64,000 nucleotides of DNA, taken from positions 85,571 through 149,570 of the forward strand of contig CAYSSX010000001.1 in the NCBI GenBank assembly GCA_964434115.1. The letters are read 5' to 3'. Below, in pieces: positions 1-20,406 of the stretch. The first letter of the stretch is position 1. Every line of letters starts with the position of its first letter. The position numbers were made by a program, and so were the translations under genes. The stretch is from an uncultured bacterium (lineage in GTDB: Bacteria > Omnitrophota > Omnitrophia > Omnitrophales > Aquincolibacteriaceae). The notes beneath the pieces are model-generated. The model worked only from the letters and a program-made list of their open reading frames with translations, had not been told where the DNA came from and did no database searches.

Positions 1-66
1 AGTCCAACGCTGGATCCAGAAATTTCCCTGGCTCAACCATCAGCGCCGCCGCTACAGGCATTTTGA
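1..66 (+). CDS. 3' end (about 22 codons) of an unidentified gene entering from upstream; stop TGA at 64-66
   Basis: Frame-1 open reading from window edge to TGA 64-66; too short to assign function. Confidence 0.25.
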   Translation, partial: SPTLDPEISLAQPSAPPLQAF

Positions 67-73
67 ACGTTTT

Positions 74-736
74 TTGGCTTTGGCCCTGATTTCGTTTGCC
101 TGCGGGTTTTTTATGGGGGCCGCGGCCACGCTGGAAACGCACCACGACCCGGTCAAGGCTTTGGGACTTAAAGAAACACGGCCCGGGTTTATGGATTGGT
201 TCCGCAGCACGTTTGCGCCCGTGGTCACGGTTCCCGGCCATCAGCTTGACGGCAGCTTTGTGTTTGCGGATTTTGAATCCGTGGGGGATTTCAGTTTATG
301 GAAAACCGAGGCCGCTTACCTTGAGGTGGCGCAGGAAAATTTTTCCCAAGGCAGTCACTCGGTCAAAATTTCCTACCACAACAACACGCGCTTGTCGGCA
401 GTCACCATGGAAAGTTATTTCAACAGCCGCTACGCGCTCTCCGACTGGTCGGGGTACCGGGCACTGGCTTTCTACCTCTACAACCCTCAGGAAACGCGTG
501 AACGGATTATTATTCAGATCAAGGACCGCCGGGGAAAGCGTTACAAGGAAGACCTCGTGATGGACCCGGACCGCGGCACGAATTTCGTGCTGGACCTTGA
601 CCGCATCCGCAAAGAAATCGACATTCACAGGATTGAGCACATCAACCTGTTTGTCTGGGATTCCAAAGAAGAGAAAGAATTCTTCCTCGACCACCTCCGC
701 CTGCTTCCTGTGAATGAAGGGGGGAAGAACGGATGA
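74..736 (+). CDS. Hypothetical secreted/membrane-anchored single-domain protein, paralogous to the N-terminal extracytoplasmic domain of the downstream 1119-aa protein
   Basis: ORF uses TTG at 74 (alternative ATG at 113). Hydrophobic N-terminus ALALISFACGFFMGAAA. Shares motifs DGSFVF(A/S)DFE, SDW(S/T)GY..L.F and EF(F/Y)(L/F)D.(L/I)RL(L/I)P with residues about 110-260 of the next ORF. Stop overlaps next start (ATGA). Confidence 0.6.
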   Translation: MALALISFACGFFMGAAATLETHHDPVKALGLKETRPGFMDWFRSTFAPVVTVPGHQLDGSFVFADFESVGDFSLWKTEAAYLEVAQENFSQGSHSVKISYHNNTRLSAVTMESYFNSRYALSDWSGYRALAFYLYNPQETRERIIIQIKDRRGKRYKEDLVMDPDRGTNFVLDLDRIRKEIDIHRIEHINLFVWDSKEEKEFFLDHLRLLPVNEGGKNG

Positions 737-3700
737 GGTTTTCTTCGCTGAAAAATATCCTGCTTGTGGCGGCCAGCAAGCTGCGGATTCTCGCGGGCTC
801 TCTTTTTCCGCCACCGCCCGCAGAGCCGCCTTCTTCCGGAGGCAAACCCGGCCGGCGGCGCCGCCACAAAATCCCGAACATGCCGGTGCTGCTGCTGATC
901 TGCCTGGCTTCGGGGGTGATCGCGGGGTATGCGACCACCTTGGCTATTCTTAAAACCGCGGATGCGGTGGTTCATGCGGGTGAAAATTCCGTGCACCTGA
1001 TCCGGTTTGTGTTTGGAAAATCCATTCCGCTTGTGGGGAAAATATCAGATGGAAGTTTTGTTTTTTCGGATTTTGAAAAGCCGGGCAGTGAGAAAGCCTG
1101 GATGCCGATCGGAGCCTCGTTTGAAAGCACGGACCGTTTTCCCTCGCAGGGCGCGCGCACCGGGCATGTTTATTTTTCCTCCAAGGCCCGGCAATCCACC
1201 CTGATTCTTGATGATTTGCTGAAGAGCCGCAAAGGCGGCAGTGACTGGACGGGGTATAAGTCGCTATTTTTCACGGTCTTCACACCGGTCAAGGAAGAGG
1301 TCCGGCTTTCCATGCAGATTACCGACCTGTGGGGAAAACAATACCGGGAAATGATGAAATTTTCAGGCGGCCGCGGTGTTTCCATTTCAATCCCTCTGGA
1401 AAAAATCGCGGGGGTTGTGACCCTTTCGAAAATTGACACGCTTGCTTTTTCCATCACGGATGAAAAAGAAGACCGGGAATTTTATTTTGATGACATTCGT
1501 TTGATTCCCAAAGGCAAACGCGAACCTTTCGGTGCCGTTTCGGGCGGTGAAGCTTCGCAGGCTCAAGCCCGGAATGTGCCGCTCGAAAAGCGGAAGGTGA
1601 ATTTCTTTGATTACGATTTCAAGTCCCGCAAGGCGGCCTGGACTTTGGGGCAGGCCGGGCCTCTGAAAGATATTGTGAGGGTTCCTTTTGTGGTCAAAAA
1701 CGAAACTCCGTACCCCTGCCGTTTTTGTTCGGTGGAAGGCGCGCTTCCGTTTCCCGCCGGAGAATTAAAGGACCTTGAAAAAATGAGGCTGCACACACCC
1801 AAGGGCGAGGAAATTGCTTTTCAGCCGCGCGTTTTGTCCCGCTGGCCGGATGGTTCTGTGCGCTGGCTGGCTCTTTCCTTTGAAGAGTCTCTCGGATCCT
1901 GGCAGGGCACGGGTTACTTTTTGGACTACGGTGCCGGGATCCGGCGGATGGCCGCTCCGGAAAGCCGTCTGAAAGTCAGGGAAGACGCCCAGTCGGTGGA
2001 AGTGGATACCGGGGTTTTGCGGTCCGTGCTTGACCGGAATGCCTTTTTTCTTTTTTCCAAAGTTTTTGTGGATGAAAACGGCGACAGTGTTTTTGAAGAC
2101 ACGGAGCAGCGGGTTTCAGACGCCTCGCTCAGTCTTGTTTTCAGAGGCAAGCAATTCCGGACGGATCTGTCCCGGGCCGACTATAAGCTCGAGGTTGAAG
2201 AAAAGGGGCCGCACCGCGTGGTGATCCGCGCCGAAGGCTGGTTCAAATCCGAAGAGGGCAGCCGGTTTTGCAAGGCCATTGTCCGCTACTATTTTTACGA
2301 GGGCAAAAGCGAGGTCAAGATTGCCCACACGCTGATTTATACGGGGTACCCGGAAAACCGCTTTTACGGAGAGTATGAGGGTTTGGACCTTCCGGCCAAC
2401 GAAACCGTGGAATCTTTCGGCATCCAGGTGCCGCTGAAGGGCTGGAAAGAAGACGAGCCTTTGGCTTTGCGTCTTGGCCGTCATGACGCGCCTCCGCTGG
2501 AGCTTGCGGCCAATGAAAAAGTCCGCCTGGTCCAGAAGGGCTGGGAGCAGTCGGTTCTGTATAAAGGCCCGGAAACTTTGGAAAACCAGGGGCTTTTTTC
2601 CGGATGGGCGGAAGTCTCCTCGCCCGTGCGCGGTCTTTCCGTCTCGGTCCGGCGGTTCCGCGAAAATTATCCCAAGGCCTTTGGGTTTGACCCCGCGAAG
2701 CAGGCACTGGAAATTGACCTTTGGCCCGCGGAGCAGGGGCCGCTTGATTTGTCCACAACGGCCAAGGCCTTGGGCCCTGGGGCCGCGGCCCGGGGCAATG
2801 CCTTTGGTCTGGGGAAAACCCACGAAATGCTTTTTTACTTTCACCGCGGCAACGCGCGCGATTCGCTGGAAAAAATGGAAAGCTTTTCGCGCCGCCTTCT
2901 GATCCGCAGCAATCCGTTTTGGGCGGATGCCACGGGCGCGCTGGGCCGTCTTTTTCCTGCCGATAAGCGCTATCAAAAACAGGAACTCATGCTTGAAGAA
3001 TTATTTGATTGGGCGGACCGTCACCCGAAATACTTTCAATGGTACGGCATGATTAATTTCGGAGACACGCTGACCTGGTGGCGCAGCAAGGACGAGGAAA
3101 AAGATTACGGCGAGTTCGGCTGGCATCCGGAGGGCCGCTGGGGCTGGTACAACGCGGAAGGCGTGGGAACGCACACCGGCAGTCTGCTTCAGTTTGTCCG
3201 CAGCGGGAAGTGGAAGTATTTTGAATTCGGGGAAAATCTCGCGCGCCATATTTTTGACATCGATACCATTCACTACAACACAATCGCCGAAGACCCGCGC
3301 CTTAAAAAAGTGCTGAACGATGAGTTCTCCCAGCCCGGATCCATGCACCGCCACAACGGCGACCACTGGGGCGGGCGCAGTGATGAGGCCAGCCATACCA
3401 ATCTGAACGGGATCCTTCTTTATTATTACCTCACGGGGGATGAACGGGCCTGGGACGTGGCCCGTGAGATTGGAGAGTTTTTTCTTAAAGAACGTTTTAC
3501 TTATGCGGGGCACCCTGACATCGCCCCGCACCGCGGCCTCGCCAACGCTCTCTGGGGAGATGTCCTGATGTTTGAGGCCACGGGCGATGAACGGTACAAA
3601 AATGCCGCGGATAAACTCATTGAAATTTTCTTAAAGGGGCAGCAGCCGGACGGAAGTTTTCTGGAAAATTACAATCCCCAGAAAGATTCCTGGTCCGGTG

Positions 3701-4092
3701 AAAAAGAAGAGTTATTCATGTCGTGGTATGACGTGGGCGCCTTTATCAGTTATCATGAACTCACTCAGGATGTGGCGGTCAAGGAAATGCTCCTCAAACT
3801 GGTCAGGTACCTGGCGAAAAGCGAATCTTCAGGCCCCGTGATTCTTCATGGGCTTGCTTACGCTTATCTGATATCCCATGACGCGGAACTGATCAAGCTA
3901 GCGGAGAATTATCTGGCCGTGATTTTGAAAAACCAAATCAACTCCGAAAATCCCGTGCTGGACGGTTTGATTTACGATAAGCCTATTTACCACAGGCCCA
4001 ATATTTACCTCTACACGGTTCCCTATGTCTTCGGGGCTTTGGAGGAAGCTTACATTCAGGAGAGGAAGGCCGCCGCGGCGGCGCAGGTATGA
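733..4092 (+). CDS. Large (1119 aa) membrane-anchored multidomain protein. Pro/Arg-rich N-terminal tail, one TM helix, beta-domain shared with ORF 74-736, long middle region, and a C-terminal about 380-aa W/Y-rich domain with duplicated LTGDER(A/Y) motifs. Putative glycan hydrolase/lyase-like protein of the EPS locus.
   Basis: Long uninterrupted ORF. RBS-like GAAGGGGGGAAG before ATG 733. TM segment PVLLLICLASGVIAGYATTLAIL. Paralogy to upstream ORF. C-terminal motifs WYGMINFGDTLTWW, HRHNGDHWGGRSDEASHTNLNGILLYYYLTGDERAW and MFEATGDERYKNAADKL resemble repeat helices of alpha/alpha-toroid carbohydrate-active enzymes (inference, not verified). Sits immediately 5' of deacetylase/GT2/exosortase genes. 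Confidence 0.7.
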   Translation: MRFSSLKNILLVAASKLRILAGSLFPPPPAEPPSSGGKPGRRRRHKIPNMPVLLLICLASGVIAGYATTLAILKTADAVVHAGENSVHLIRFVFGKSIPLVGKISDGSFVFSDFEKPGSEKAWMPIGASFESTDRFPSQGARTGHVYFSSKARQSTLILDDLLKSRKGGSDWTGYKSLFFTVFTPVKEEVRLSMQITDLWGKQYREMMKFSGGRGVSISIPLEKIAGVVTLSKIDTLAFSITDEKEDREFYFDDIRLIPKGKREPFGAVSGGEASQAQARNVPLEKRKVNFFDYDFKSRKAAWTLGQAGPLKDIVRVPFVVKNETPYPCRFCSVEGALPFPAGELKDLEKMRLHTPKGEEIAFQPRVLSRWPDGSVRWLALSFEESLGSWQGTGYFLDYGAGIRRMAAPESRLKVREDAQSVEVDTGVLRSVLDRNAFFLFSKVFVDENGDSVFEDTEQRVSDASLSLVFRGKQFRTDLSRADYKLEVEEKGPHRVVIRAEGWFKSEEGSRFCKAIVRYYFYEGKSEVKIAHTLIYTGYPENRFYGEYEGLDLPANETVESFGIQVPLKGWKEDEPLALRLGRHDAPPLELAANEKVRLVQKGWEQSVLYKGPETLENQGLFSGWAEVSSPVRGLSVSVRRFRENYPKAFGFDPAKQALEIDLWPAEQGPLDLSTTAKALGPGAAARGNAFGLGKTHEMLFYFHRGNARDSLEKMESFSRRLLIRSNPFWADATGALGRLFPADKRYQKQELMLEELFDWADRHPKYFQWYGMINFGDTLTWWRSKDEEKDYGEFGWHPEGRWGWYNAEGVGTHTGSLLQFVRSGKWKYFEFGENLARHIFDIDTIHYNTIAEDPRLKKVLNDEFSQPGSMHRHNGDHWGGRSDEASHTNLNGILLYYYLTGDERAWDVAREIGEFFLKERFTYAGHPDIAPHRGLANALWGDVLMFEATGDERYKNAADKLIEIFLKGQQPDGSFLENYNPQKDSWSGEKEELFMSWYDVGAFISYHELTQDVAVKEMLLKLVRYLAKSESSGPVILHGLAYAYLISHDAELIKLAENYLAVILKNQINSENPVLDGLIYDKPIYHRPNIYLYTVPYVFGALEEAYIQERKAAAAAQV

Positions 4093-4874
4093 AGAACGCT
4101 GTCCCTGTTCTTAATTATCACGGCATCCAGTCCCGGCCCGGTGAGTACGGCTGGCATACGGGTGAAAAAATTTATGTTTTGCCTTTGGCCTCGTTTCAGG
4201 AACAGCTGCAGGGGATCGCCCGGAAACACGGCGCGCTTGCGAGCGAAGATCTGTCTTCTGCCGCGACAAAAGAGGGCGTGCTTCTGACTTTTGATGACGG
4301 CCATATCAGCCATTACGAACACGCGCGGCCGGCCCTCAAGGCTGCGGGATTTACAGGGATTTTTTTTATTTCCGCGGGGATGATCGGAGAAAAAGATTTT
4401 ATGGACGCGGCCCAGCTGCGCGAAATGGCCAGCGATGGTTTTGAATTGGGATCCCACGGTTATCACCATGTGCCCTTGCCCGGCCTTTCCAGCGCTCAGC
4501 TGAAGGTGGAGATGCAAGACTCCCGGAAAAGACTTGAGGATGTGACCGGCCGCGAAATTCGCAGCTTTTCCATCCCGCGGGGTTTTTATCATCCCCGGAT
4601 CCGGGCCGCGGCCGAAGAAGCCGGCTACCGTTTTTTGTTTACCTCGCATTTTGGCCTTCACACGACCGGTACGGATTTGTTTTATATCCGCAGGATGGCA
4701 GTCACTCAGGACACCACGGCGGGGCAGTTTGAATCCTGGCTTCAAGGCGATTTGGGCGCGATGCGCTGGGTGGAAGAAGCCAAGGAAAAGGCGCGCCAGT
4801 GGATCGGGCCCAAAGGGTATGAGAAAATGGCTCTTTTGAAGGCCCGCCTCCGGGGCGCGGGCAGGGGAATTTAG
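4089..4874 (+). CDS. Polysaccharide deacetylase, NodB-homology domain (PEP-CTERM/exosortase-locus type)
   Basis: Motifs LTFDDGHISHYE and GSHGYHHVPL (NodB Asp-Asp and His-His metal-binding motifs). ATGA overlap with upstream gene. Location in exosortase locus. Confidence 0.85.
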   Translation: MKNAVPVLNYHGIQSRPGEYGWHTGEKIYVLPLASFQEQLQGIARKHGALASEDLSSAATKEGVLLTFDDGHISHYEHARPALKAAGFTGIFFISAGMIGEKDFMDAAQLREMASDGFELGSHGYHHVPLPGLSSAQLKVEMQDSRKRLEDVTGREIRSFSIPRGFYHPRIRAAAEEAGYRFLFTSHFGLHTTGTDLFYIRRMAVTQDTTAGQFESWLQGDLGAMRWVEEAKEKARQWIGPKGYEKMALLKARLRGAGRGI

Positions 4875-4875
4875 A

Positions 4876-6018
4876 ATGATTCTTTTTTGGCTGTCCGTAC
4901 TGCTTGTCCTTTATACCTACGCCGGATACCCGCTTATTCTCATGTGGCTTGCGCGGGTTTCCTCTCGCCCCGTGAAAAAAGGCTCTTATGAACCGCGCGT
5001 GAGCGTGATTGTCTCCGTGTATAACGAAGAGCGGTTTATCGCCGACAAGATTAACAATCTCCTGGCGTTGGATTATCCGGCGGAAAAAATAGAAATCCTG
5101 ATTGGCTCGGACGGCGGCACGGACAGCACGGATGAAATTGTTTCCGGCATCCACGACCCGAGAATCCGGTTTTTTAGATTTGTCGCGAATCTTGGAAAGC
5201 CGCATGTTTTAAACGGGCTGATCGCGGAAGCTCACGGCGCAGTGCTTGTGTTCACCGATGCCCGCCAGCGGTTTGAACCTCAAGCGGTCCGCAAGCTGGT
5301 TGAAAATTTTTCAGACCCTGATGTGGGCTGTGTTTCCGGAGAACTGTATTTTGAGGAAGCCCGCGGCAGCGGCGTGGCGCAAGGGATGGACGCTTATTGG
5401 AAGTATGAAAAATTTCTCCGTAAAAAAGAAGGGGAGATTGCTTCCATGCTGGGGGCCACCGGCGCCATTTACGCGGCCCGGGCCGATCTTGTCCCGACGC
5501 TTCCCCTGAATATCCTTGTGGACGACATGTACATTCCTCTGGCGATTGTTGCGAAAGGGTACCGCGCGGTTTTTGAGAGTGAAGCGCGGGCCTACGACCT
5601 TGCCTCCAGCAAAGGGACACAGGAATTGAAACGAAAGGTCCGCACGCTGTCGGGAAATTTCCAGATTTTTGCGGCCTTTCCAGACTTGTTAAAACCGTGG
5701 AAAAGCCCGGTGGCCTGGCAGCTCTTGTCGCATAAATTTTTGCGTCTTATGGTGCCGTACTTTTTGATGACCGCATTCCTGAGTAATCTTTTTTTATGCG
5801 CCCATCCTTTTTACTGTTTCTTGCTGCTGGTGCAGGCTGCTTTCTACAGTCTTGCGGCATTTGAGGCCTTGCGCGTGCACTTTTTTCCGCAGATGAAACC
5901 TTTCCGGCCCGCGGCGCTTCCCTACATGTTCTGCCTGCTCAATTTTTCTGCCGCGGCCGGGCTTCGTCAGTACCTCAAAGGGCAGCCCAAAGCCGCGTGG
6001 GACAAGGCTTACCCATGA
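4876..6018 (+). CDS. Family 2 glycosyltransferase, membrane-embedded processive type (N-terminal TM helix plus C-terminal TM bundle)
   Basis: VSVIVSVYNEERFI...LIGSDGGTDSTDEI (GT2 DxD region) and DDMYIPL. Hydrophobic N-terminus and C-terminal multi-TM region, as in PgaC/cellulose-synthase-like synthases. Confidence 0.85.
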   Translation: MILFWLSVLLVLYTYAGYPLILMWLARVSSRPVKKGSYEPRVSVIVSVYNEERFIADKINNLLALDYPAEKIEILIGSDGGTDSTDEIVSGIHDPRIRFFRFVANLGKPHVLNGLIAEAHGAVLVFTDARQRFEPQAVRKLVENFSDPDVGCVSGELYFEEARGSGVAQGMDAYWKYEKFLRKKEGEIASMLGATGAIYAARADLVPTLPLNILVDDMYIPLAIVAKGYRAVFESEARAYDLASSKGTQELKRKVRTLSGNFQIFAAFPDLLKPWKSPVAWQLLSHKFLRLMVPYFLMTAFLSNLFLCAHPFYCFLLLVQAAFYSLAAFEALRVHFFPQMKPFRPAALPYMFCLLNFSAAAGLRQYLKGQPKAAWDKAYP

Positions 6019-6123
6019 TAACAATGATCGTTCCTGCTGTTTTCTGTTGTTCTCCGATCGAAGGAGTTTTTCCTCAAACGCGCTGATTTTGCGAATTCAA
6101 ATTTCATCTGCTAACCTTGCGCA

Positions 6124-6999
6124 TTGTTTAATTCTCAAACTATGACCTCAACATCCGAACAAACCCATTTCAGCTGGAAAAAGCTTCTGCTTCCGGGCCT
6201 TGCCTGCGCGGGGCTTTTGGCCTGGGTCTATGCCCCTACCTTTGAGTGGATGGTGGACCGCTGGTCGGTCCGCGATTCATATTACGGACACGGTTTTTTG
6301 ATCCCGCTGGTTTCTCTGTTCTGGATTTGGCAGAAGCGCGCGGAAATCGCTAAGGCCGTACCCGAGTCCAGCGCCTGGGGCTTTCCTGTTTTGGCCGCAG
6401 CCGCGGTGCTTCAGATTTTTGCCGCTGTTTTCAGGGTTTATTTTATTTCTGCTTTTTCTTTTGTGTTCATGCTTTTCGCGGGCGTTCTTTTGCTGGGCGG
6501 TCTGCGCCTTCTCAAACTTGTGTGGTTTCCTGTTTTCTTTCTGACCTTAATGGTCCCGCTTCCGCTTTTAATGATTTCTGAAATCACCCTGAAAATGAAA
6601 TTCCTTGTGACTGAAATGGCGGTGCATTGCCTGAACGCAGTCGGCCTGCATTCCGAGCGGCAGGGCAGTTACATTGTTCTTCCGAACACGTTCCTGCTGG
6701 TCGGAGACCCTTGCAGCGGCCTGCGCTCCTTTCTTTCTTTTCTTTGTCTGGGGTTTGTTTTCGCTTACGGCGGAAGGACCGCGTGGTGGGGAAAACTGGT
6801 GCTTGTTTTTGCCGGGCTGCCGCTTGCCATCCTTTCAAACTTGATGCGGGTTTTCTTTTTGGGGCTTGTCGCGGAAGTCTACGGCCAGGAAGCCGCGGGC
6901 GGCAAAATCCACGACGTTTCCGGAATTGTTGTCTTTATTATCTCGTTCTGCATTTTTATGGTGATCCGTCAAAAGCTGGAGGGGTCGCATGCAGGCTAA
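6124..6999 (+). CDS. xrt: Exosortase (PEP-CTERM protein-sorting transpeptidase)
   Basis: Polytopic membrane protein. Catalytic-Cys motif GDPCSGLRSF and conserved Arg in SNLMRVFFLG, typical of the exosortase/archaeosortase family. Adjacent EpsI gene and PEP-CTERM substrates. Confidence 0.85.
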   Translation: MFNSQTMTSTSEQTHFSWKKLLLPGLACAGLLAWVYAPTFEWMVDRWSVRDSYYGHGFLIPLVSLFWIWQKRAEIAKAVPESSAWGFPVLAAAAVLQIFAAVFRVYFISAFSFVFMLFAGVLLLGGLRLLKLVWFPVFFLTLMVPLPLLMISEITLKMKFLVTEMAVHCLNAVGLHSERQGSYIVLPNTFLLVGDPCSGLRSFLSFLCLGFVFAYGGRTAWWGKLVLVFAGLPLAILSNLMRVFFLGLVAEVYGQEAAGGKIHDVSGIVVFIISFCIFMVIRQKLEGSHAG

Positions 7000-7603
7000 A
7001 ACAGCCAAAGGCCTCATCCCGTTTGTGCTTGTGCTGGGCGCCTTGAGTTTCTTCCGCCTCGCGCTTCCTTCCGCAATGACTATTGCCGGGGAAGTCAGCC
7101 CGTTTTTTAAAACCTTTCCCCTCGAAATCGGCGCATGGAAAGGCGAAGAAATTGTTCCGGATGAACGCGATCTTCAAATTCTGGAAACGCGCAATGTCTT
7201 GTCGCGCAATTACCGCAATGCGGCCGGCGACTCTTTGCATCTTTTTCTGGTCAGTTCCAAAAAAGACCGCCGCGTCGCGCATCCGCCGGAAGTCTGTTAT
7301 GTTTCCTCGAATTTCAACGTGGTCAATGCCCGTGAGACCACGATTCAGGGGCCGGATGCCAAGATCATTCCGGTAAAGGAGTTTACGGCTGTTCCGGAGC
7401 GTCAGCCGGACAATGCCCAGGAAGTTTTGTACCTTTACAAGATCGGAAACCGGTTTACGACTAATTACTATGCCCAGCAGCTTCAGTTCGCTTTGGATAA
7501 TTTGTCGAAGAATGATTCCGAGGTTTTGATGATTCGTCTGGCAGGAAGAAACAAGGCTGTTCTTGAGGAATTCCTCAAAGAATTAATCCCGGTTTTGAAT
7601 TAA
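6989..7603 (+). CDS. epsI: EpsI-family exosortase-associated protein
   Basis: N-terminal TM anchor LIPFVLVLGALSFF. Motif AHPPEVCYVSS matches the conserved H-P-E-x-C signature of EpsI proteins. 11-nt overlap with exosortase stop. Confidence 0.75.
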   Translation: MQAKTAKGLIPFVLVLGALSFFRLALPSAMTIAGEVSPFFKTFPLEIGAWKGEEIVPDERDLQILETRNVLSRNYRNAAGDSLHLFLVSSKKDRRVAHPPEVCYVSSNFNVVNARETTIQGPDAKIIPVKEFTAVPERQPDNAQEVLYLYKIGNRFTTNYYAQQLQFALDNLSKNDSEVLMIRLAGRNKAVLEEFLKELIPVLN

Positions 7604-7902
7604 CCTTCCCGGGCAGCGTCTCAACTCTAACGCTGCAGACTGCAAAAGACAAAGGACACTTCGTTCACGCGAAAGGCTTTGCCTTGAGGCGAACGGGATG
7701 TCCTTAAAAGATGTAAGTTTATGAAAATGCAGAGGTTGTCAAAATCGCCGGTTATTTAAACAAATCTAGACAAATGTTGTTTTTTTTAGACATTCTGAAA
7801 TTGAAACTAAGATAAGTGACTTTGATGACAAAGCTTTTTAATTGTAAGTCATTCAAAATAAACAAGTTACACAATGTTTTAAACAGGTTAGTTTGAAATT
7901 AG

Positions 7903-7920
7903 TTGGCATGGAAAGTGCAT
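7903..7920 (+). promoter_or_regulatory. Sigma-54 (RpoN) -24/-12 promoter candidate upstream of sugar transferase / PEP-CTERM genes
   Basis: TTGGCATGGAAAGTGCAT = TGGCAT(G)-N4-(G)TGCA with exact GG-N10-GC spacing versus consensus TGGCACG-N4-TTGCA. Lies in a 330-nt AT-rich intergenic region, about 55 nt before ATG 7977. Confidence 0.5.
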
Positions 7921-7976
7921 AGAGTCTGAATGCTGAAGTGCACTTATTCAAATATCCCCGTCATAAGGTGAGCAAA

Positions 7977-8732
7977 ATGAAAACGTTATGGAATGAAGAA
8001 GTTAAACAAGGGTTTAACGCTCTGAGGGCTGATATCCAGCGAGATTATATGCTTCGCCGATATCAGATGCTCTCGAAGGGTGAAACCCCTGTTGAAGAAA
8101 AGCTGATGCACCATTTAACGCATGCCTATACGGCGGTGGTGACATCCTGGCGGCGTTTTTTGAAGCGCGTTTTGGATCTTTCGGTGTCTTTGATGGGGTT
8201 GACCTTGGGCGCGCCTCTGTTCCTGTTGATCGCCCTTGTCATTAAGCTCGACTCCCGCGGACCTATTTTTTACAAACAGCTTCGAGTGGGGCTTCGCGGC
8301 CGTACCTTTTACATCTATAAATTCCGCAGCATGCGTCAGGATGCGGAAGTCAAAAGCGGCCCGGTGTGGGCTAAAGAGAACGATCCGCGCATTACTCGTA
8401 TCGGGAATTTTCTCCGCAAAACGCATTTGGACGAGCTTCCTCAATTCATCAATGTCTTAAAAGGGGAGATGAGCCTTGTCGGTCCCCGCCCTGAGCGCCC
8501 GCACTTCGTGAAAGAATTGCGCAAAGTGATTCCGCATTATGACAAGCGCCATTATGCCAAACCTGGGGTTACCGGGCTTGCGCAGATCCGCCAGCGCTAC
8601 GATGAAACAACTGAAGATGTGAAGAAGAAAGTACGTTACGACGTGCTTTATATCAAAAAGATGTGTCCGATTCTCGATATTAAGGTGATCGCCATGACGG
8701 CGTTTACCATGATTCTGAGAACGGGCAGATAA
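7977..8732 (+). CDS. Exopolysaccharide polyprenyl-phosphate sugar transferase (bacterial sugar transferase family, WbaP/EpsB C-terminal-domain type)
   Basis: Motifs GPRPERPHF, PGVTGLAQI and YDVLYIKKMCPILDIKV, plus a TM helix LGAPLFLLIALVI. Start chosen at ATG 7977 (GGTGA RBS 8 nt upstream); the ORF could start at 7938. Confidence 0.85.
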   Translation: MKTLWNEEVKQGFNALRADIQRDYMLRRYQMLSKGETPVEEKLMHHLTHAYTAVVTSWRRFLKRVLDLSVSLMGLTLGAPLFLLIALVIKLDSRGPIFYKQLRVGLRGRTFYIYKFRSMRQDAEVKSGPVWAKENDPRITRIGNFLRKTHLDELPQFINVLKGEMSLVGPRPERPHFVKELRKVIPHYDKRHYAKPGVTGLAQIRQRYDETTEDVKKKVRYDVLYIKKMCPILDIKVIAMTAFTMILRTGR

Positions 8733-8796
8733 GAGAATGATTCCAGCTAGCGGGAATTACTTCTCTAATTTAAAAAAGAAAGGAGCTAGAAACAGC

Positions 8797-9504
8797 ATGA
8801 AAAAAACTCTGAGCTTGTTCGCACTCATCGCCGGATTGGTTATTCTCTCCAGCGCACGTGCGTACGCAGCTGTTCCGGTGATTGACGGAAGCGTCAGTCC
8901 CGCCACTGAATGGGATAATACTGGTTATAACTATTATCTCAACATCAGTGATCCGAACGAAGTTGATGTTCCTGATTCATACGACATCGCGTCAGCGACG
9001 TTGCTTCAGGAAATTGAAGGCTTCGGATTTGGAGATTCTAACGCTGCCAACGACGGGATTTACCTCCTGATCACGACCTATGCGACTCCTTCCTTCGTGG
9101 ATTTCACGTTGGGCGGTCCTAAGGTTACCGTGTATTTGGATGGTGATTTCGACGGCGATGGTATCGTTGATTTCTCACTTCAGCACACAGCTCTTGCTAA
9201 TGGAACCGGCCAGACGGTTACTGTAACGTTCAACGTTTTTGGACCTACAGGCGACCTTGTTGCAAACGGTGGTTCTTTCGCAGTGAACGGTGTGCTTGAG
9301 TATTTCATTCCTCACACGGGTTTCAATACCCCCAGCGTTCCTTTCCCTGGTGCGTTTGTTGGATACATCACCTATGATAATGGTGGTCTTCCTCCAGATG
9401 ATATCGCGACTGGCACCTTGGTTCCTGAGCCGAGCAGCATGCTTCTCTTCGGAGGCGCGTTGTTGGGTCTTTTGGGTGTGAATTTCAAGCGTTTCTCCAA
9501 GTAG
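8797..9504 (+). CDS. PEP-CTERM sorting-domain protein (exosortase substrate)
   Basis: AAAGGAG RBS before ATG 8797. Signal peptide MKKTLSLFALIAGLVILSSARAYA. C-terminus VPEPSSMLLFGGALLGLLGVNFKRFSK (PEP motif, TM helix, basic tail). Internal DGDFDGDGIVD Ca-binding-like motif. Confidence 0.85.
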   Translation: MKKTLSLFALIAGLVILSSARAYAAVPVIDGSVSPATEWDNTGYNYYLNISDPNEVDVPDSYDIASATLLQEIEGFGFGDSNAANDGIYLLITTYATPSFVDFTLGGPKVTVYLDGDFDGDGIVDFSLQHTALANGTGQTVTVTFNVFGPTGDLVANGGSFAVNGVLEYFIPHTGFNTPSVPFPGAFVGYITYDNGGLPPDDIATGTLVPEPSSMLLFGGALLGLLGVNFKRFSK

Positions 9505-9553
9505 TTTTCTTTCAATAGTTGCTATAATCCTCAAACATTATAGTTAGCTATTT

Positions 9554-9594
9554 GGTAAGAGCTCCTTACCCTGGCCCCCGAAAGGGGGCCAGGG
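9554..9594 (+). terminator. Tandem hairpins after the PEP-CTERM gene (putative intrinsic terminator)
   Basis: GGTAAG-AGCTC-CTTACC followed by a perfect 11-bp GC stem CCCTGGCCCCC-GAAA-GGGGGCCAGGG (9569-9594). No clean downstream T-run, so efficiency is uncertain. Confidence 0.45.
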
Positions 9595-9654
9595 ACTACT
9601 TGAATAATAAATGAAACCGTAGTACAAAGAAGGCAGTGAATCTTAAGGAAGGAG

Positions 9655-10485
9655 GTGGCCCGGCACATGGCACGTCACCCCGAAAATAATAAGCCACAGC
9701 AAAGCCTGCACCGCGAAACACTTATCGCGATTGCAAAGCAGCCCATTATTCCCGCGCTCTTCATACTTCTGGCAATTTTCCAAGCAGCAGGCTTGACAGC
9801 CCTTTTTCTTTCGCATTCCGAGCCGTTTTCGAGCATTTTGGGACCGATTATCCGCCGTTTTTGGGGGGAGCGTTTTCTGCATTATCCGGAAAACTTTCTT
9901 TTGCTGCCCAAGCTTTTTGGCCACTCTGAAATGGTGATCCTGACCCTTTTCGGTCTTCTGGTCACAGGCATTACGATTCAGCTTGTAGGCGCCGCCCGGA
10001 CCGGGGACAGCCGTGTCACGGCCGTGACCGCTTTTTCCGGCACCTTGAAAAAGTATCTGGGGCTGGCCGCTCTGTGGATTGCTTTGTTTTTCCTGCTTCG
10101 GACAGTTTCGAGAGCGGTACTGCCGTTTCTTCCCCCGCAGATTCCGGTCCATTACGCGGGTCTTCTGGCGGTTTTTTTATCCACGCAGGTTCTTACTGCG
10201 CTGCTCTTCCCGGCAATTCTTCTTTCTGGAAAAGGGTATTGGAAAGCCCTTGCGGAAGGTTTCTTGCTCTCCGTGAAGAATTTCCCCGTGCTGTTTGCGG
10301 CCTTATTCATTCCGGTGGCTTTAAGCGTGGCGGTCTCGTTCCTTAGGTCTTTGTCGCCGTCGATTTCGCATGATAACCCGGATTTTGTGCTCGTGATTTT
10401 GTACGGCAGTATTTTGGTTTCAACCGTTGTGGATCTCTACATCACCTCCGCGACGGCTATATTCTATTTGAAAGTGAGGAATTAA
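9655..10485 (+). CDS. Hypothetical polytopic integral membrane protein (about 6 TM)
   Basis: Long ORF with repeated hydrophobic helices. No recognisable catalytic motif. Embedded between two PEP-CTERM genes. Confidence 0.55.
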   Translation: MARHMARHPENNKPQQSLHRETLIAIAKQPIIPALFILLAIFQAAGLTALFLSHSEPFSSILGPIIRRFWGERFLHYPENFLLLPKLFGHSEMVILTLFGLLVTGITIQLVGAARTGDSRVTAVTAFSGTLKKYLGLAALWIALFFLLRTVSRAVLPFLPPQIPVHYAGLLAVFLSTQVLTALLFPAILLSGKGYWKALAEGFLLSVKNFPVLFAALFIPVALSVAVSFLRSLSPSISHDNPDFVLVILYGSILVSTVVDLYITSATAIFYLKVRN

Positions 10486-10492
10486 AATTCCC

Positions 10493-11212
10493 ATGAAACA
10501 TTTTAAACGTTATTTGGCGGGCTTCCTTTGCGCGGTTCTTCCGAGCTGGAGCCTTTACGCGGCGGTGCCCGATATGCCGCTGGTTTTCACGCCCTCCGCT
10601 CTTCCGATTGAAGAGCCGGCTGAAAAATTCATTGGCTGGTATGACCTGGTCTATCAGGATCAGGTTGCGCCTCCCACAGTTCCGCAGGCGATTGTGGACG
10701 CCTTATTTCCCGACCAGGAAATTGCGCTTCCTCAGATCTCTGGCGGTGTTTCCGTGCCTCTCGAAAAGCTTTCTGATGCGGACCTGGAAGAAGAACTTCA
10801 GGACGAACTCCTTTTAGATGAGGATGCTGAAGGCGAGCATTCTTCGAAGAAGCGGCTGGTTGTCGGCCTTCTTATTCTCAGTGCAGCGCTCGGGGCGCTT
10901 CTCTTACTTCTTTCGGGTTCTGGCGGCGGCTCCGGTTCTGGAAGCGGCGGCTCGTCAGGAAATGGTGGTGACTCCAACGGTTCCACGCCTCCTCCTGTGG
11001 GCGGCGGCGGTACCGGCGGCGGGAATGGAACAGGCCCGGGTACGGGACCTGGTACCGGCGGTGGCGGCGGCCCTGGTGTTGGCGGCGGTCCCGGCGGTGG
11101 TGGTATTACTCCTTTCTCATTTCCGAACAATGTTCCCAATAACCCGGAACCTTCGACCCTGTTTTTGATTGGCCTTGGATTGTTGTTGCCTTTTTTGCGT
11201 AGAAAAGGATAA
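10493..11212 (+). CDS. PEP-CTERM sorting-domain protein, acidic N-terminal region plus long Gly/Pro-rich low-complexity region
   Basis: Signal peptide MKHFKRYLAGFLCAVLPSWSLYAAVP. C-terminus NPEPSTLFLIGLGLLLPFLRRKG. Internal SGSGGGSGSG...GTGPGTGPGTGGGGGPG tract. Confidence 0.8.
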   Translation: MKHFKRYLAGFLCAVLPSWSLYAAVPDMPLVFTPSALPIEEPAEKFIGWYDLVYQDQVAPPTVPQAIVDALFPDQEIALPQISGGVSVPLEKLSDADLEEELQDELLLDEDAEGEHSSKKRLVVGLLILSAALGALLLLLSGSGGGSGSGSGGSSGNGGDSNGSTPPPVGGGGTGGGNGTGPGTGPGTGGGGGPGVGGGPGGGGITPFSFPNNVPNNPEPSTLFLIGLGLLLPFLRRKG

Positions 11213-11221
11213 TCCGAGTTC

Positions 11222-12634
11222 ATGAGAAAAACGTTTTTCCTTTTTTTGCTCGCGGCCTTTGCTTTTTCAGGCTGCGGTAAAAACTATCTTGCCGAGAAAG
11301 AGTTCTTTAAAGCAGAACAGCTGCTGAAGGGACTCAATCTTTCCCAGAGCCTAGATCCGCTCGACCAGGCTGTTGATGCCTTTCGCTCGGTCGCGGACCG
11401 CTATCCAGGCACACCCAAGGCGCTTGAAAGTCTCCGCCTCATTTCCAATATGCGTCTTAAACAAAAAAAGTATGAGGAGGCGCGAGAGGCCATGACGGAA
11501 GTCATTCAGAGTTTCGCGGCTTCCCAGGATGCTATTGCAGATGCCCGTTACCGTATCGGGGAAATCTACGAGATTGAAGAGAAGTGGGATGCTGCCGAAA
11601 AGTATTTTTGGGAACTTTCCGAGTACAGCCCCCTTCACGCAAAAGGCCTTTACGCTCCGATCAAAATTCTCCTCAATTACCGCAGGACTAAAGATGACAA
11701 AGGCTTTGAACGCGCGTATGTCAAAGCGTTGGACCATTACGAAAGTCTCCTTAAACAGGTAGGCCCCATTGAAGCCTCCGCGCCTGTCCGGAATTATTTG
11801 GGAATGGTTCAGATGATTCACGAAGATGCGGACAAGGCTCTTGCGACCTGGCTTTCCATCCCGCTGGATTTTCCCAAAAGCCCGCATGCCTCCATGGCGA
11901 TTCTGGCCGCCGCCGAATTGAACTGGAAAAATAAGGAATACGAAAAAGCCGAAGCTTTATATCAGCGCTTTTTCACGGAATACCCGGGGCACCCCTTGAC
12001 TGGAAGAACCGCGATGACTCTTGGCCTTGCCTATCACAGCAAAGGGGACTTTACCAAATCCCGTGAATCTTATCAGCGCGCACTGGACAGCGGCGGTTAT
12101 GCAGAAAAATCCCCTGAGAGATCGGAATTGAAACTTCTCATGGCGCGCAGTTATCAGGATGAACTGCTCTGGGATGAGGCCGACGCCCTTTATCAGGAGA
12201 TCGAATTGGCTTACCCCAATTCGTCAGCGGCGCTTCAGGTCCCGTTAATGCGCGCAGACCATTTTAATGAAGTGGGTGAGACGGCTCAGGCGCTGGATAT
12301 TCTTGATAAAGCCATCCGGCATTATGAAGTTTTGGCGGCGAATCAAAAGGATCCGAAAATTGTGAGTTACGCCCAGCGTTTTCGCTCGCAGGCTTTAGCC
12401 CGTAAAGGGGCCTGGAAAGAAATTGTTGATGATATTGACAAACGCATGGCTGAAGAGACAACGCCGGTCCGCAAAGGCCGCTGGCTTTTCTTAAAAGCGC
12501 TTATGACACAGAATCGTTTAAAGGATTCGCCCAAGGCCATTGAGTTATACGAAAGTTTTCTGAATCTTTACCCCGGTCATCCCTTAGAAGCCCGGGCAAA
12601 GACCCAGCTCGAACTCCTCCGCAAGCCCGCTTAA
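11222..12634 (+). CDS. TPR-repeat lipoprotein
   Basis: Lipoprotein signal with lipobox FSGC (MRKTFFLFLLAAFAFSGCG). Multiple TPR-like helical repeats (YPGTP/YPGHP tetratricopeptide motifs). Cf. PEP-CTERM-system TPR lipoproteins. Confidence 0.75.
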   Translation: MRKTFFLFLLAAFAFSGCGKNYLAEKEFFKAEQLLKGLNLSQSLDPLDQAVDAFRSVADRYPGTPKALESLRLISNMRLKQKKYEEAREAMTEVIQSFAASQDAIADARYRIGEIYEIEEKWDAAEKYFWELSEYSPLHAKGLYAPIKILLNYRRTKDDKGFERAYVKALDHYESLLKQVGPIEASAPVRNYLGMVQMIHEDADKALATWLSIPLDFPKSPHASMAILAAAELNWKNKEYEKAEALYQRFFTEYPGHPLTGRTAMTLGLAYHSKGDFTKSRESYQRALDSGGYAEKSPERSELKLLMARSYQDELLWDEADALYQEIELAYPNSSAALQVPLMRADHFNEVGETAQALDILDKAIRHYEVLAANQKDPKIVSYAQRFRSQALARKGAWKEIVDDIDKRMAEETTPVRKGRWLFLKALMTQNRLKDSPKAIELYESFLNLYPGHPLEARAKTQLELLRKPA

Positions 12635-12805
12635 CCCCCCCCGTATTAGCTTCTATAAACAATCCCCTAGTTTACTTTTTTAGACTTTTCTCGGTATACA
12701 AAACTAATCAAAAACAATCTTTTTAAAGCAATTTAAAACAACCTCTATGGGGTCATAACATATTGAAATAAAAGCACTTACGATTATATATTTCGCCCGC
12801 AAGCC

Positions 12806-12833
12806 TTGAATGGGGAAGTTCTTGTGATATAAT
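12806..12833 (+). promoter_or_regulatory. Sigma-70-like promoter candidate for the GAF histidine kinase gene
   Basis: TTGAAT -N16- TGATATAAT (extended -10 TGn-TATAAT) about 85 nt upstream of ATG 12918. Confidence 0.35.
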
Positions 12834-12917
12834 CCACACATCGTTTTCCAAAAGATTCATCATTGTGATTAAAAAAAACAACTTTCTGAATTCAAACCGG
12901 AAAAACCAGGACAGCCA

Positions 12918-20339: not shown

Positions 20340-20406
20340 TATACGGATTCAGTGCGGGGTGTAGGATCCATGCAGAACGGACAAGTCTTCCAAGTGGAGG
20401 CAGGCC

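Follow-up and report, generated by a model that had tools for sequence, protein, structure and literature searches.

The larger of two tandem paralogous genes near one end of the window, the 64,000-nucleotide stretch of Omnitrophota DNA analyzed here, codes for a protein (ORF2) in which a PcRGLX-like (PL26-type) body with all three of its domains spans residues ~314–1118. ORF2 would be a fixed component of a Wzy-type/PEP-CTERM-exosortase exopolysaccharide locus in one Omnitrophota clade, and we think it probable that it cleaves the polymer of its own locus at the inner membrane, facing the periplasm, with the product of the smaller gene (ORF1) as a non-catalytic binding partner. The source organism is known from metagenomes only. 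What the analysis establishes is the homology and domain architecture, the fold, the predicted membrane anchors, the synteny and the purifying selection; the features are collected in Table 1.

Table 1. Features of the ORF1/ORF2 region, in window coordinates.
Feature	Coordinates	Strand	Basis or remark
ORF1, small paralog	1..736	+	5' end cut by window edge
ORF1 TM helix, P0039 residues ~25-50	62..139	+	hydropathy peak 2.14; model helix 25-50; aligns with ORF2 TM helix
ORF1 CBM-like beta-sandwich, P0039 residues ~90-240	257..709	+	Pfam match and Foldseek
ATGA overlap, ORF1/ORF2	733..736	+	ORF2 ATG 733-735, ORF1 stop TGA 734-736
ORF2, 1119 aa	733..4092	+	membrane-anchored CBM-like domain fused to three-domain PcRGLX-like (PL26-type) body
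ORF2 cytoplasmic tail, residues 1-49	733..879	+	amphipathic helix 5-24, then disordered Pro-rich stretch
ORF2 single TM helix, residues ~50-75	880..957	+	hydropathy 2.11; model helix 50-75
ORF2 CBM-like beta-sandwich, residues ~105-260	1045..1512	+	BLASTP to ORF1 E=1e-31; pLDDT >90
PcRGLX-like first domain (RIFT barrel), residues ~314-400	1672..1932	+	PF19501, 35.7 bits, cut-off 22.1
PcRGLX-like central beta-sandwich, residues ~414-726	1972..2910	+	PF21345, 49.8 bits, cut-off 23.5; model strands 414-704
PcRGLX-like C-terminal alpha/alpha toroid, residues ~728-1118	2914..4089	+	
ATGA overlap, ORF2 stop/CE4 deacetylase start	4089..4092	+	sequence
CE4 polysaccharide deacetylase	4089..4874	+	PF01522, E 9.6e-26; conserved downstream partner
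Membrane GT2 glycosyltransferase	4876..6018	+	PF00535, PF13641, PF13632; conserved downstream partner
Exosortase (EpsH family) and separate EpsI gene	6124..7603	+	PF09721 E 8.6e-61; PF11984 E 6.4e-25

The PcRGLX-like body of ORF2

The Pfam domains PcRGLX_1st, PcRGLX_2nd and PcRGLX_3rd all match ORF2 above their gathering cut-offs, and the ORF2 family profile covers chain residues 19–846 of PcRGLX (PDB 5xq3) at E=1e-114. PcRGLX is not found by phmmer from the window ORF2 protein alone (E≤1), and the structure-based identity of the two is just 16–18%. The first-pass annotation had likened the C-terminal domain to alpha/alpha-toroid glycan hydrolases, lyases and epimerases and placed it in no named family; the toroid stands, but Pfam does name the family, as PcRGLX-like (PL26-type), and ~480 residues regarded as unassigned are covered by the same body. 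Membership of a non-carbohydrate family would have counted against a glycan-processing enzyme; the profile matches name a carbohydrate-active one instead. The PL26 fold is little studied.

Sixty-eight clade-invariant residues are identical in PcRGLX, and within the toroid they include a dense polar cluster (D778, N807, E809, R823, H839, D844, H847, R873, H874, H878, W879, E904 and R905). The first domain carries W371-P372-D373-x-S375, which is family-invariant and identical in PcRGLX, and the toroid, which has no cysteine, carries the motifs WYGMINFGD, GRWGWYNAEG, ARHIFDIDTIH and HRHNGDHW together with two TGDER hairpin motifs. The Trp clusters and duplicated LTGDER motif reported earlier are present (two TGDER copies, at residues 901 and 950, and within residues 731–1119 a total of 13 Trp and 25 Tyr), and both are conserved PcRGLX motifs.

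Membrane anchors and paralogy of ORF1 and ORF2

The ORF2 tail (8 Pro, 6 Arg and 4 Lys in 50 residues) is Pro/Arg-rich (...KPGRRRRHKIPN) before the TM helix and ends GRRRRHKIPN. In the ORF2 model (pLDDT 85.8, pTM 0.78 for the whole protein) residues 5–24 are helical and pLDDT is <50 for residues 26–51; Kyte-Doolittle values >1.6 place the TM helix at residues ~50–72. Hydropathy and composition thus agree with the previous call of one TM helix behind a Pro/Arg-rich cytoplasmic tail, and a single helix after the RRRRHK stretch supports a membrane-anchored product, with a predicted orientation to the surface or periplasm.

ORF1 and ORF2 align by BLASTP at 30% identity over 210 residues with just 3 gap positions (E=1e-31), a similarity far above chance. 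All of the shared motifs quoted previously are found (DGSFVF(A/S)DFE, SDW(S/T)GY and EF(F/Y)(L/F)D.(L/I)RL(L/I)P), and with ORFs 74–736 and 733–4092 both on the + strand in different frames this is, as proposed, a genuine duplication and not a frameshift. The homology had been thought to start at ORF2 residue ~110; the alignment begins at residue 53, within the TM helix, which extends the duplication to the TM anchor and linker.

The TTG at position 74 was rejected as the ORF1 start, a window-edge artefact, as the frame continues upstream without a stop to window base 2. A database protein, P0039, is 100% identical to ORF1 and has 248 aa with the N-terminus MKLL+VQRWIQKF..., the first four codons (MKLL) lying upstream of base 2. 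From N to C terminus the protein (AF2 model pLDDT 83) has a basic amphipathic tail, a TM helix, a linker and a CBM-like beta-sandwich; the basic stretch HQRRRYRHFERF is directly N-terminal to the helix, and by the positive-inside rule an N-in, C-out orientation is predicted. P0039 shares the basic tail and the TM helix of ORF2, so ORF1 is not soluble, nor the free copy of the binding domain that it was first taken for.

The domain common to ORF1 and ORF2 is a CBM11/agarase-CBM-like beta-sandwich. ORF1 matches Pfam Agarase_CBM (PF17992; 27.5 bits, cut-off 26.3), Foldseek matches its domain to CBM11 (6r3m, 6r31 and 1v0a; E 3e-9 to 9e-9, TM(target) 0.64–0.68) and to the GH50 agarase N-terminal domain 4bq2, and the same region in a whole-ORF2 fold search matches CBM11 and the CBM-like domains of GH50 agarases, in keeping with the CBM-type fold suggested before. 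The ATGA couplings described on both sides of ORF2 are present (Table 1), with a purine-rich GAAGGGGGGAAG immediately upstream of the first, and the ORF1/ORF2 junction is equally tight in loci L001 (9999/10001), L002 and L007 (7356–7359).

The large protein stands with an exosortase in at least 11 loci. Fourteen distinct loci among those fetched encode its N-terminal CBM-like region, and 3 of them have the small paralog as a separate gene. ORF1-type genes are missing from most of these loci, and are therefore dispensable for the basic function. This absence, and a word-index search that gave just four protein clusters, would suit a decaying, non-functional duplicate fragment. Against this, four lineages keep an intact ORF1 frame of 245–249 aa, with its start, TM helix and stop all conserved; exhaustive searching gives more stand-alone forms at 34–41% identity; and comparison with the L007 ortholog gives dN 0.081 with dS saturated, which at the sequence level indicates strong purifying selection. 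ORF1 is also better conserved than its homologous domain in ORF2 (87–89% versus 82% identity to L007). Decay, which the first-pass annotation had itself raised, is ruled out by these conservation data, and we give it next to no credence.

Stand-alone ORF1-like forms of 237–253 aa occur in several 50% clusters, and one again has Wzy_C before it. In P0043 and P0051 two tandem copies of the domain are fused N-terminal to a PL26-like body, a fusion that argues, in Rosetta-stone fashion, for one enzyme working with two copies. The same domain is fused to domains of GH123, a beta-N-acetylgalactosaminidase family, in P0043, P0048, P0049 and P0051.

Locus organization and synteny

The large protein is conserved in Omnitrophota MAGs at 35–81% identity, and the order is always Wzy_C – (small paralog) – large protein – CE4 – GT2, with the exosortase and EpsI coming next in Omnitrophota. 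The order from the large protein to EpsI is found in L001, L002, L003, L005, L007, L009, L011, L012, L017, L018 and L021, and is retained down to 35% identity. Wzy_C is immediately upstream in L005, L009, L011, L012 and L022, and L028 keeps the large protein – CE4 – GT2 trio with no exosortase at that position. The earlier reading had the pair heading the locus; in fact Wzy_C, GT4, GT2 and CE4 genes precede it in L001, L002 and L007, and the ORF1 and ORF2 genes are mid-operon, not first.

The exosortase scores 173 bits against the XrtA model, below the cut-off of 208. The CE4 deacetylase, which always adjoins the large protein, has no N-terminal hydrophobic segment (neither signal peptide nor TM segment), and its HfsH-like (45 bits) and PgaB-like (50 bits) matches are each under cut-off. 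By analogy with HfsH it may work in the cytoplasm on lipid-linked units, and the lack of a signal peptide or TM segment weakens the case for a PgaB/PelA-style periplasmic coupling of deacetylase and hydrolase.

Distant homologs outside the clade have catabolic-looking surroundings instead, L023 adjoining heparinase II/III-like and GFO/IDH/MocA (sugar oxidoreductase) genes. ORF2 might accordingly be a nutritional or offensive glycanase acting at the cell surface on a foreign polysaccharide (such as host or prey matrix, or environmental pectin-like rhamnogalacturonan), its position in an EPS locus being incidental; the only matching solved structure bears the annotation of a catabolic exo-rhamnogalacturonan lyase (PMC13501991), and the GH123 fusions in P0043 and P0051 resemble multi-enzyme degraders. 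We consider this unlikely, as gene order is strict within a biosynthetic operon over at least 11 loci and to 35% identity, with overlaps on both sides, ORF2 is tethered to the inner membrane and not secreted, and no transporter or sugar-catabolic genes are found adjacent to it.

Lyase or hydrolase

The structure 5xqo, which its PDB title describes as a complex with tetrameric substrate, differs from 5xq3 by one Tyr to Phe change. The mutated Tyr is in a loop of 43 residues in PcRGLX, whereas the loop in the Omnitrophota clade has 27 residues and no conserved Tyr (ORF2 672–698, DLSTT..ARGNAFGLGKTHE, within the central beta-sandwich). Because this Tyr is missing throughout the clade, PL26-type beta-elimination by ORF2 is not assured. 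A lyase would require the product of a uronic-acid synthesis gene, and no locus showed one within 10 kb.

The absent Tyr would also suit an enzyme that alters the polymer without breaking it down, such as an epimerase/isomerase or transglycosylase on the six-hairpin fold with the nascent chain as substrate. AGE-family enzymes use His-based proton transfer, for which the conserved H839, H847, H874 and H878 would be suited, and the fold search also matched cellobiose and N-acylglucosamine 2-epimerase structures. These epimerases, however, use free sugars and not membrane-proximal polymers, the homology spans the whole three-domain body and not just the toroid, and the His/Arg/Asp/Glu cluster is also present in PcRGLX, itself a lyase; modification is thus a rather improbable reading.

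Alternatively, ORF2 could be a catalytically dead scaffold, its PL26-like body and the two CBM-like modules doing no more than binding and guiding the polymer, whether to measure chain length as a ruler, for instance, or to link Wzy with the export machinery. The missing Tyr would fit here too, as would two further observations: no Wzz/PCP-type gene was recognized within the 10-kb flanks of the examined loci, and selection maintains ORF1, a purely non-catalytic N-terminal module. We hold it to be very unlikely: ~15 polar pocket-type residues are clade-invariant and the same in the active enzyme PcRGLX, dN/dS of the PL26-like body is 0.03, and the fusion of relatives to a second catalytic domain, GH123, points to enzymology.

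Proposed function

We infer the topology, substrate and catalytic activity of ORF2, and the partner role of ORF1, as follows. ORF2 would be co-transcribed and translationally coupled with the Wzy_C-like membrane protein upstream and with CE4 and GT2 downstream. Anchored in the inner membrane with its CBM-like sandwich and PL26-type body extracytoplasmic, it would cut the polymer of the locus in the periplasm, serving in trimming, chain-length control, release or the clearing of stalled chains. N-acetylhexosamine is a probable constituent of this polymer, and partial deacetylation is probable too, as hinted by the GH123 fusions of the CBM-like domain and the ever-adjacent CE4. ORF1 would be an old paralog of the anchor-plus-CBM module, non-catalytic and membrane-tethered, lying between Wzy_C and the enzyme, and is most likely a second glycan-binding module beside it.

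PslG, AlgL, BcsZ and PelA cut or trim polymer in their own systems, and ORF2 would be analogous to PslG, an inner-membrane-associated glycanase encoded within an EPS biosynthesis cluster. Psl biosynthesis requires inner-membrane association of PslG (PMC6813494), and EPS synthesis clusters often carry glycosyl hydrolase genes (PMC9075953). Such precedents qualify the earlier statement that the arrangement is not described, which holds in that we found no paper describing a PL26-like enzyme within an exosortase locus. Keeping a polymer-trimming enzyme in a polymer-synthesis operon is a known habit; what would be new here is an enzyme of the PL26 fold with a membrane-tethered sugar-binding relative.

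Gene pair and its junctions

The small gene, ORF1 (annotated as ORF 74-736), and the large gene, ORF2 (ORF 733-4092), are both transcribed from the + strand but in different frames. The paralogy proposed for them in the first-pass annotation is borne out by BLASTP (E=1e-31; the 210 aligned residues are 30% identical and 49% positive, with only 3 gap positions), and the motifs it quoted are all found in the sequence. The shared region had been placed at about ORF2 residues 110-260; the homology stands but the extent does not, as the alignment begins at residue 53 of ORF2 and residue 3 of ORF1, and the transmembrane (TM) helix and linker therefore also belong to the duplication.

ORF1 had been taken for a free, soluble copy of the domain, but its frame has no stop as far back as base 2, and P0039, an identical database protein of 248 aa, has the N-terminus MKLL-VQRWIQKFPWLNHQRRRYRHFERF followed by a TM helix. 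The ORF1 orthologs are 245-249 aa long, and ORF1 is a membrane-anchored protein. The TTG at 74 was considered as a start codon and is ruled out by the same open frame and the full-length P0039. ORF2 has the single TM segment and Pro/Arg-rich tail first described for it, with a hydrophobic helix at about residues 50-72 following a tail whose 50 residues include 8 Pro, 6 Arg and 4 Lys; the positive charges of this single-pass anchor are on its N-terminal side. The ATGA overlaps regarded as evidence of translational coupling are present at 733-736 and at 4089-4092.

The pair was thought to stand at the head of its locus, but is located mid-operon as judged from L001, L002 and L007, three loci of relatives in which GT4, GT2, CE4 and two Wzy_C genes lie upstream of the same pair and the nearest Wzy_C gene overlaps the start of the small gene; the context upstream of the window pair is read from these relatives' loci. 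A promoter and terminator scan of window positions 1-13000 gave counts near those of shuffled sequence, and says nothing on operon boundaries.

ORF2 architecture and its PL26-like body

The AlphaFold2 model of ORF2 is confident (pLDDT 85.8, pTM 0.78), and its domains are listed in the table together with the features downstream. Three Pfam models of the PcRGLX type match in N-to-C order: PF19501 on residues 338-385 (35.7 bits; gathering cut-off 22.1), PF21345 on residues 414-544 (49.8 bits; cut-off 23.5) and PF21346 on residues 731-913 (29.0 bits; cut-off 23.8), in agreement with precomputed Pfam matches of the orthologs. A GH127 catalytic model on residues 945-1028 is just above its gathering cut-off, and all four matches exceed their cut-offs, though weakly. 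A phmmer search of the PDB with ORF2 as a single sequence returned nothing at E<=1, and a profile of ORF2 and 37 homologs (38 sequences) matches PcRGLX (5xq3, chain residues 19-846) with E=1e-114. PcRGLX, annotated in the PDB as a PL26 exo-rhamnogalacturonan lyase from Penicillium chrysogenum (entries 5XQ3, 5XQG, 5XQJ and 5XQO), is the only solved structure matching this part of ORF2 (residues ~314-1118), and the modelled similarity to its crystal structure spans all three domains. The approximately 480 residues initially left unassigned and the W/Y-rich C-terminal domain that could not be placed are by Pfam, profile and model a single unit, a complete PL26-type body.

Table. Domains of ORF2 (residue numbers) and features of the window downstream of the pair (window positions).
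Feature	Position	Basis or remark
ORF2 cytoplasmic helix	residues 5-24	AlphaFold2 model
ORF2 disordered stretch	residues 26-51	AlphaFold2 model
ORF2 TM helix	residues 50-75	AlphaFold2 model
ORF2 beta-sandwich (CBM-like)	residues 109-259	AlphaFold2 model
ORF2 linker, low confidence	residues 260-310	AlphaFold2 model
ORF2 two beta domains	residues 314-704	AlphaFold2 model
ORF2 alpha/alpha toroid	residues 745-1118	AlphaFold2 model
Exosortase and EpsI	6124-7603	exosortase scores best with the XrtA model (173 bits against a cut-off of 208) and nearly as well with XrtW; subtype unclassified
PEP-CTERM proteins, two	8737-9504 and 10493-11212	
Multi-pass membrane protein, 276 aa	9655-10485	no Pfam or NCBIfam match
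TPR protein, GAF histidine kinase, sigma-54 response regulator	11222-15553	PrsT/PrsK/PrsR-like, below equivalog cut-offs
Mostly housekeeping genes	15699-64000	mostly + strand; pgk, tpiA, secG, recG, plsX, fabF, smc, recA, alaS, hisD, trpE, dnaK, VWA-TPR protein
GT4 glycosyltransferase	62325-63683	- strand

In the last 389 residues of ORF2, Trp occurs 13 times, Tyr 25 times and His 15 times while Cys is absent, and the Trp clusters are conserved motifs of the PcRGLX type, with WYGMINFGD, GRWGWYNAEG, HRHNGDHW and YYLTGDER in ORF2 resembling WYGFLDYGD, GGYAWDNSEL, TRHGVQHW and FYLSGGDER in PcRGLX. The duplication of the TGDER motif is confirmed (residues 901 and 950), the two being copies of a hairpin signature that also lies behind weak GH127 and GH76 matches. 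In the family-HMM alignment, 68 positions that are invariant in at least 11 of 12 members of the close clade are identical in PcRGLX, among them a polar cluster in the toroid pocket (D778, N807, E809, R823, H839, D844, H847, R873, H874, H878, W879, E904 and R905).

ORF2 and PcRGLX thus share a domain order of RIFT barrel, beta-sandwich and (alpha/alpha)6 toroid, and the motifs WYGxxxxGD, WxNxE, FxRxG, RHxxxxDxxH, RHxxxHW and G(D)ER, but are only 16-18% identical, with no pairwise phmmer match. Whereas PcRGLX is a secreted fungal pectinase, ORF2 is bacterial, TM-anchored, has an extra N-terminal CBM-like domain and is encoded in an EPS biosynthesis operon; its substrate is almost certainly not plant RG-I.

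Predicted chemistry

ORF2 departs from PcRGLX in a loop bounded by the conserved anchors D672-L673 and T696-x-E698 (ORF2 numbering). The loop is 43 residues long in PcRGLX, where it carries a Tyr (ITYEDW), and in Armatimonas protein P0032 (VTYEDY), but 27 residues in ORF2 and its homologs P0002-P0015 (26 in the partial P0015), with the pattern DLSTTxxAxGPxxxARGNAFGLAKTHE; it is thus 16 residues shorter in ORF2, the Tyr is absent, and no conserved Tyr is found in the shortened loop of any of these proteins. KTHE stands at the same place as RTSE of PcRGLX. In PDB entry 5XQO, whose title names a complex with tetrameric substrate, the Tyr of 5XQ3 is replaced by Phe within ...LEIT(Y/F)EDWEPG..., a sequence difference from which the Tyr is presumed to be needed for catalysis, or beta-elimination, by PcRGLX. 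Full-text literature searches gave no description of the catalytic residues of PcRGLX or PL26, and no uronic-acid biosynthesis gene was seen across the examined flanks of the loci. Conservation extends to the fold and to most of the pocket, and the cleavage predicted from sequence could be that of a lyase or a hydrolase. We consider it distinctly unlikely that ORF2 is instead an enzyme that modifies the polymer, and very unlikely that it is a non-catalytic scaffold.

The GH127 likeness can be set aside as a guide to mechanism. HypBA1, of GH127/GH146 (PDB 3WKW), is matched by the profile with E 2e-8, but the likeness is confined to hairpin repeats with a TGDxRY motif. GH127 chemistry is defined by a Cys nucleophile and Cys-Zn site; the Cys residues of ORF2 are only at positions 57, 329, 332 and 513, and as none is within 731-1119 such a site cannot exist in its toroid, which rules out a GH127 mechanism.

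The shared CBM-like domain and the small paralog

ORF1 matches the Pfam model Agarase_CBM (PF17992) marginally, with 27.5 bits against a cut-off of 26.3, and the copy in ORF2 is recognised only through ORF1 (BLASTP) and through its fold. In the ORF1 model (pLDDT 83), helices at the N-terminus are followed by a TM helix (residues 25-50) and a beta-sandwich (90-240), for which Foldseek finds CBM11 (E 3e-9 to 1e-8, TM(target) 0.64-0.68) and the N-terminal CBM-like domain of GH50 agarase, with weaker matches to the N-domains of xanthanase and chondroitinase ABC, CBM22 and CBM30. ORF1 shares the beta-sandwich fold with CBM11 of Clostridium thermocellum Lic26A-Cel5E and with the N-domain of GH50 exo-beta-agarase (PF17992) at identities of 12-16%, and in GH50, as in ORF2, the CBM-like domain is N-terminal to the catalytic body. 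In contrast to these, the domain in the window has its own TM helix, also occurs as a stand-alone gene and belongs to a small sequence family: when 1.84 billion representatives were scanned exhaustively with HMMER, only 197 proteins had it at E<=1e-3.

Both genes are under purifying selection. Relative to the closest locus, L007, ORF2 has a dN/dS of 0.044, and ORF1 has a dN of 0.081 with synonymous sites saturated, which answers the earlier concern that it might be a degraded fragment: ORF1 is not decaying, and that the short gene is a dead remnant of the duplication is extremely improbable.

Stand-alone forms of 237-253 aa with the same order of tail, TM helix and domain fall in several clusters (P0044-P0047 and P0050), and the stand-alone gene in locus L027 also follows a Wzy_C gene, whose product is 43% identical to that of L007. 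In P0043 and P0051 (~1795 aa) a TM segment is followed by two CBM domains, a PcRGLX-like body and GH123, and in P0048 and P0049 two or three CBM copies precede GH123. Two CBM modules ahead of one enzyme in a single polypeptide are a fused counterpart of the arrangement split between two genes in the window, which supports a joint function for the pair. That the domain keeps company with GH123 and PL26-like catalytic domains is a circumstantial sign of carbohydrate binding.

In a neighbor-joining (NJ) tree of the CBM domains, which carries no support values and has weak deep branches, the small paralogs form a clade of their own instead of standing as sisters to the ORF2-type domains found in their own genomes, from which we conclude that the duplication is old; a recent tandem duplication, which would pair them, is unsupported. 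The two copies were also compared with outgroups, using window 1045-1512 and 257-709 against L003, L017-L021 and P0043-P0051. By BLAST E-value, in several of the loci and in the fused proteins, the CBM domains of distant relatives are nearer the ORF1 copy than the ORF2 copy (e.g. 3e-33 against 1e-11 for L018), whereas over trimmed columns the mean identities are equal (31.2% and 31.7%); the ORF2 copy may have diverged faster after duplication.

Conservation of the locus in relatives

A word-index search found 38 ORF2 homologs; wherever a source is named, those at 37% identity or more belong to Candidatus Omnitrophota MAGs, and it is from nearest relatives that the phylum is assigned. Among 185,579 species genomes scanned, 17 loci with an ORF2 homolog were recovered, thirteen in Omnitrophota/Omnitrophica MAGs, two in genomes labelled 'uncultured bacterium', and one each in Bacteroidota and Solibacteraceae. 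The closest, L007, encodes a homolog 81% identical to ORF2. The order big protein, CE4, GT2, exosortase and EpsI is found in eleven loci (L001, L002, L003, L005, L007, L009, L011, L012, L017, L018 and L021), often followed by a priming transferase, a PEP-CTERM protein and a TPR protein. A Wzy_C gene lies immediately upstream of the big protein in L005, L009, L011, L012 and L022, and is separated from it by one gene in loci that have the small paralog. Of the fetched loci, L001, L002 and L007 alone share the separate small paralog gene with the window, and these are 3 of the 14 distinct fetched loci encoding the N-terminal CBM-like region of the big protein.

Locus L028, which encodes the fused P0043 (10001-15379), is a similar GT4/Wzy_C locus, in which P0043 is followed by orthologous CE4 (36% identity) and GT2 (37%) genes, and the next gene is not an exosortase. 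The enzyme thus goes with the glycan-assembly genes, and the exosortase is its neighbor in Omnitrophota. A Solibacteraceae locus, L023, has a distant homolog (26% identity) adjoining GFO/IDH/MocA and heparinase II/III-like genes, a context that looks catabolic. That ORF2 itself is a catabolic or offensive glycanase is unlikely: its gene is a fixed member of an EPS assembly operon, with start/stop overlaps with its neighbors and synteny across at least 11 loci plus L028.

The window CE4 protein has only a weak likeness to HfsH and PgaB, and no N-terminal hydrophobic segment is seen in its sequence, so it may work in the cytoplasm. Between the PL26-like gene and CE4, some Omnitrophota loci have an inserted gene for a metallophosphoesterase, a SAM methyltransferase or both (L002 13288-14193, L003 13409-15396 and L005 13248-14165), which suggests lineage-specific decoration of the polymer. 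In L003/L004 (Omnitrophica RIFCSPLOWO2_12_FULL_44_17) the EPS locus is interrupted at 4376-6437 and 18557-20647 by two toxin-antitoxin-like pairs of an NTP_transf_2/Polbeta gene and a small partner, and also by GIY-YIG and 23S-rRNA-IVP family genes.

The remainder of the window

The EPS gene set of the window comprises exosortase, EpsI, a priming sugar transferase, PEP-CTERM proteins, a TPR protein, a GAF histidine kinase, a sigma-54 regulator and the CE4 deacetylase. Haft and colleagues reportedly described PEP-CTERM/exosortase (EpsH) EPS loci, including XrtA systems with PrsK, PrsR, PrsT, CE4 and a Wzy_C-like ligase, and the genes just listed are what the window has in common with them. However, the exosortase, PrsK-like, PrsR-like and CE4 proteins are all below the XrtA-system equivalog cut-offs (395 bits against 503 for the PrsR-like regulator), and the TPR protein scores highest with the YbgF/CpoB model. 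EpsI has a gene of its own, which overlaps the stop of the exosortase gene. No NCBIfam model matches ORF2 at E<=0.1 and ORF1 has only two matches, far below cut-off, so neither is a described component of XrtA-type systems.

The second PEP-CTERM protein has a long Gly/Pro-rich low-complexity stretch, GSGGGSGSGSGG...GPGTGPGTGGGGGPG, before its sorting signal. Genes similar in length to that of the multi-pass membrane protein, and likewise lacking a Pfam match, are called at the corresponding place in L001 (18903-19727) and L002 (19933-20778). The cumulative GC skew climbs steadily from one end of the window to the other.

Proposed role

The inferred N-in/C-out topology would place the CBM-like domain and the enzyme in the periplasm beside the Wzy_C protein, where the enzyme may act on the product of its own locus, cleaving nascent or mis-assembled chains. 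A polymer containing N-acetylhexosamine (HexNAc) is suggested by the CE4 gene next to it and by the repeated CBM-GH123 fusions, and in the simplest view ORF1 would be an additional anchored binding module beside the enzyme. We regard this reading as a whole, a periplasmic, anchored enzyme that cuts the polymer of its own locus with ORF1 as binding partner, as probable.

The nearest parallel is PslG of Pseudomonas aeruginosa, with looser ones in AlgL, BcsZ, PelA and the C-terminal domain of PgaB. PslG is likewise encoded in a polysaccharide biosynthesis cluster, and has an N-terminal membrane anchor, a periplasmic catalytic part (predicted for ORF2) and a beta domain of carbohydrate-binding type. 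It is a GH39 enzyme with a (beta/alpha)8 barrel, unrelated in fold and family to the PL26-like toroid of ORF2, which is known here from sequence and model, and psl has no counterpart to the stand-alone CBM paralog. Association of PslG with the inner membrane is required for Psl synthesis (PMC6813494), and hydrolase genes are recurrent in EPS clusters (PMC9075953).

A bolder proposal, to which we give only a small chance, is that the PL26-like fold was recruited in Omnitrophota as an integral, membrane-tethered part of the Wzy machine, in physical contact with Wzy_C and aided by a separate anchored CBM paralog, and takes the place of a classical Wzz/PCP co-polymerase in setting the length or ends of a HexNAc-rich, partly deacetylated EPS by chemistry other than that of PcRGLX (hydrolysis or a Tyr-less lyase reaction). 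If true, this would widen the range of reactions catalysed by the PL26 fold.

Pfam already includes both domain families, and operons for EPS that encode a glycanase or trimming enzyme are well known, so the self-trimming operon is familiar and the concept is unchanged. Literature searches on exosortase with Omnitrophota or polysaccharide lyase found nothing relevant. As far as the literature was searched, what appears new is a branch of the PL26 fold, in exosortase/Wzy loci, that is bacterial, anchored in the membrane and fused to a CBM and that has lost the loop Tyr, and an anchor-plus-CBM module that occurs both as a separate gene and as a tandem fusion. As relatives carry this module in both forms, its role as a partner is directly testable. 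The Omnitrophota clade is a bacterial PL26-like branch linked to polysaccharide biosynthesis rather than catabolism. We know of no structure for the EPS of this uncultured phylum, and the conserved core of Wzy_C, glycanase, CE4 and GT2 offers a way into it.
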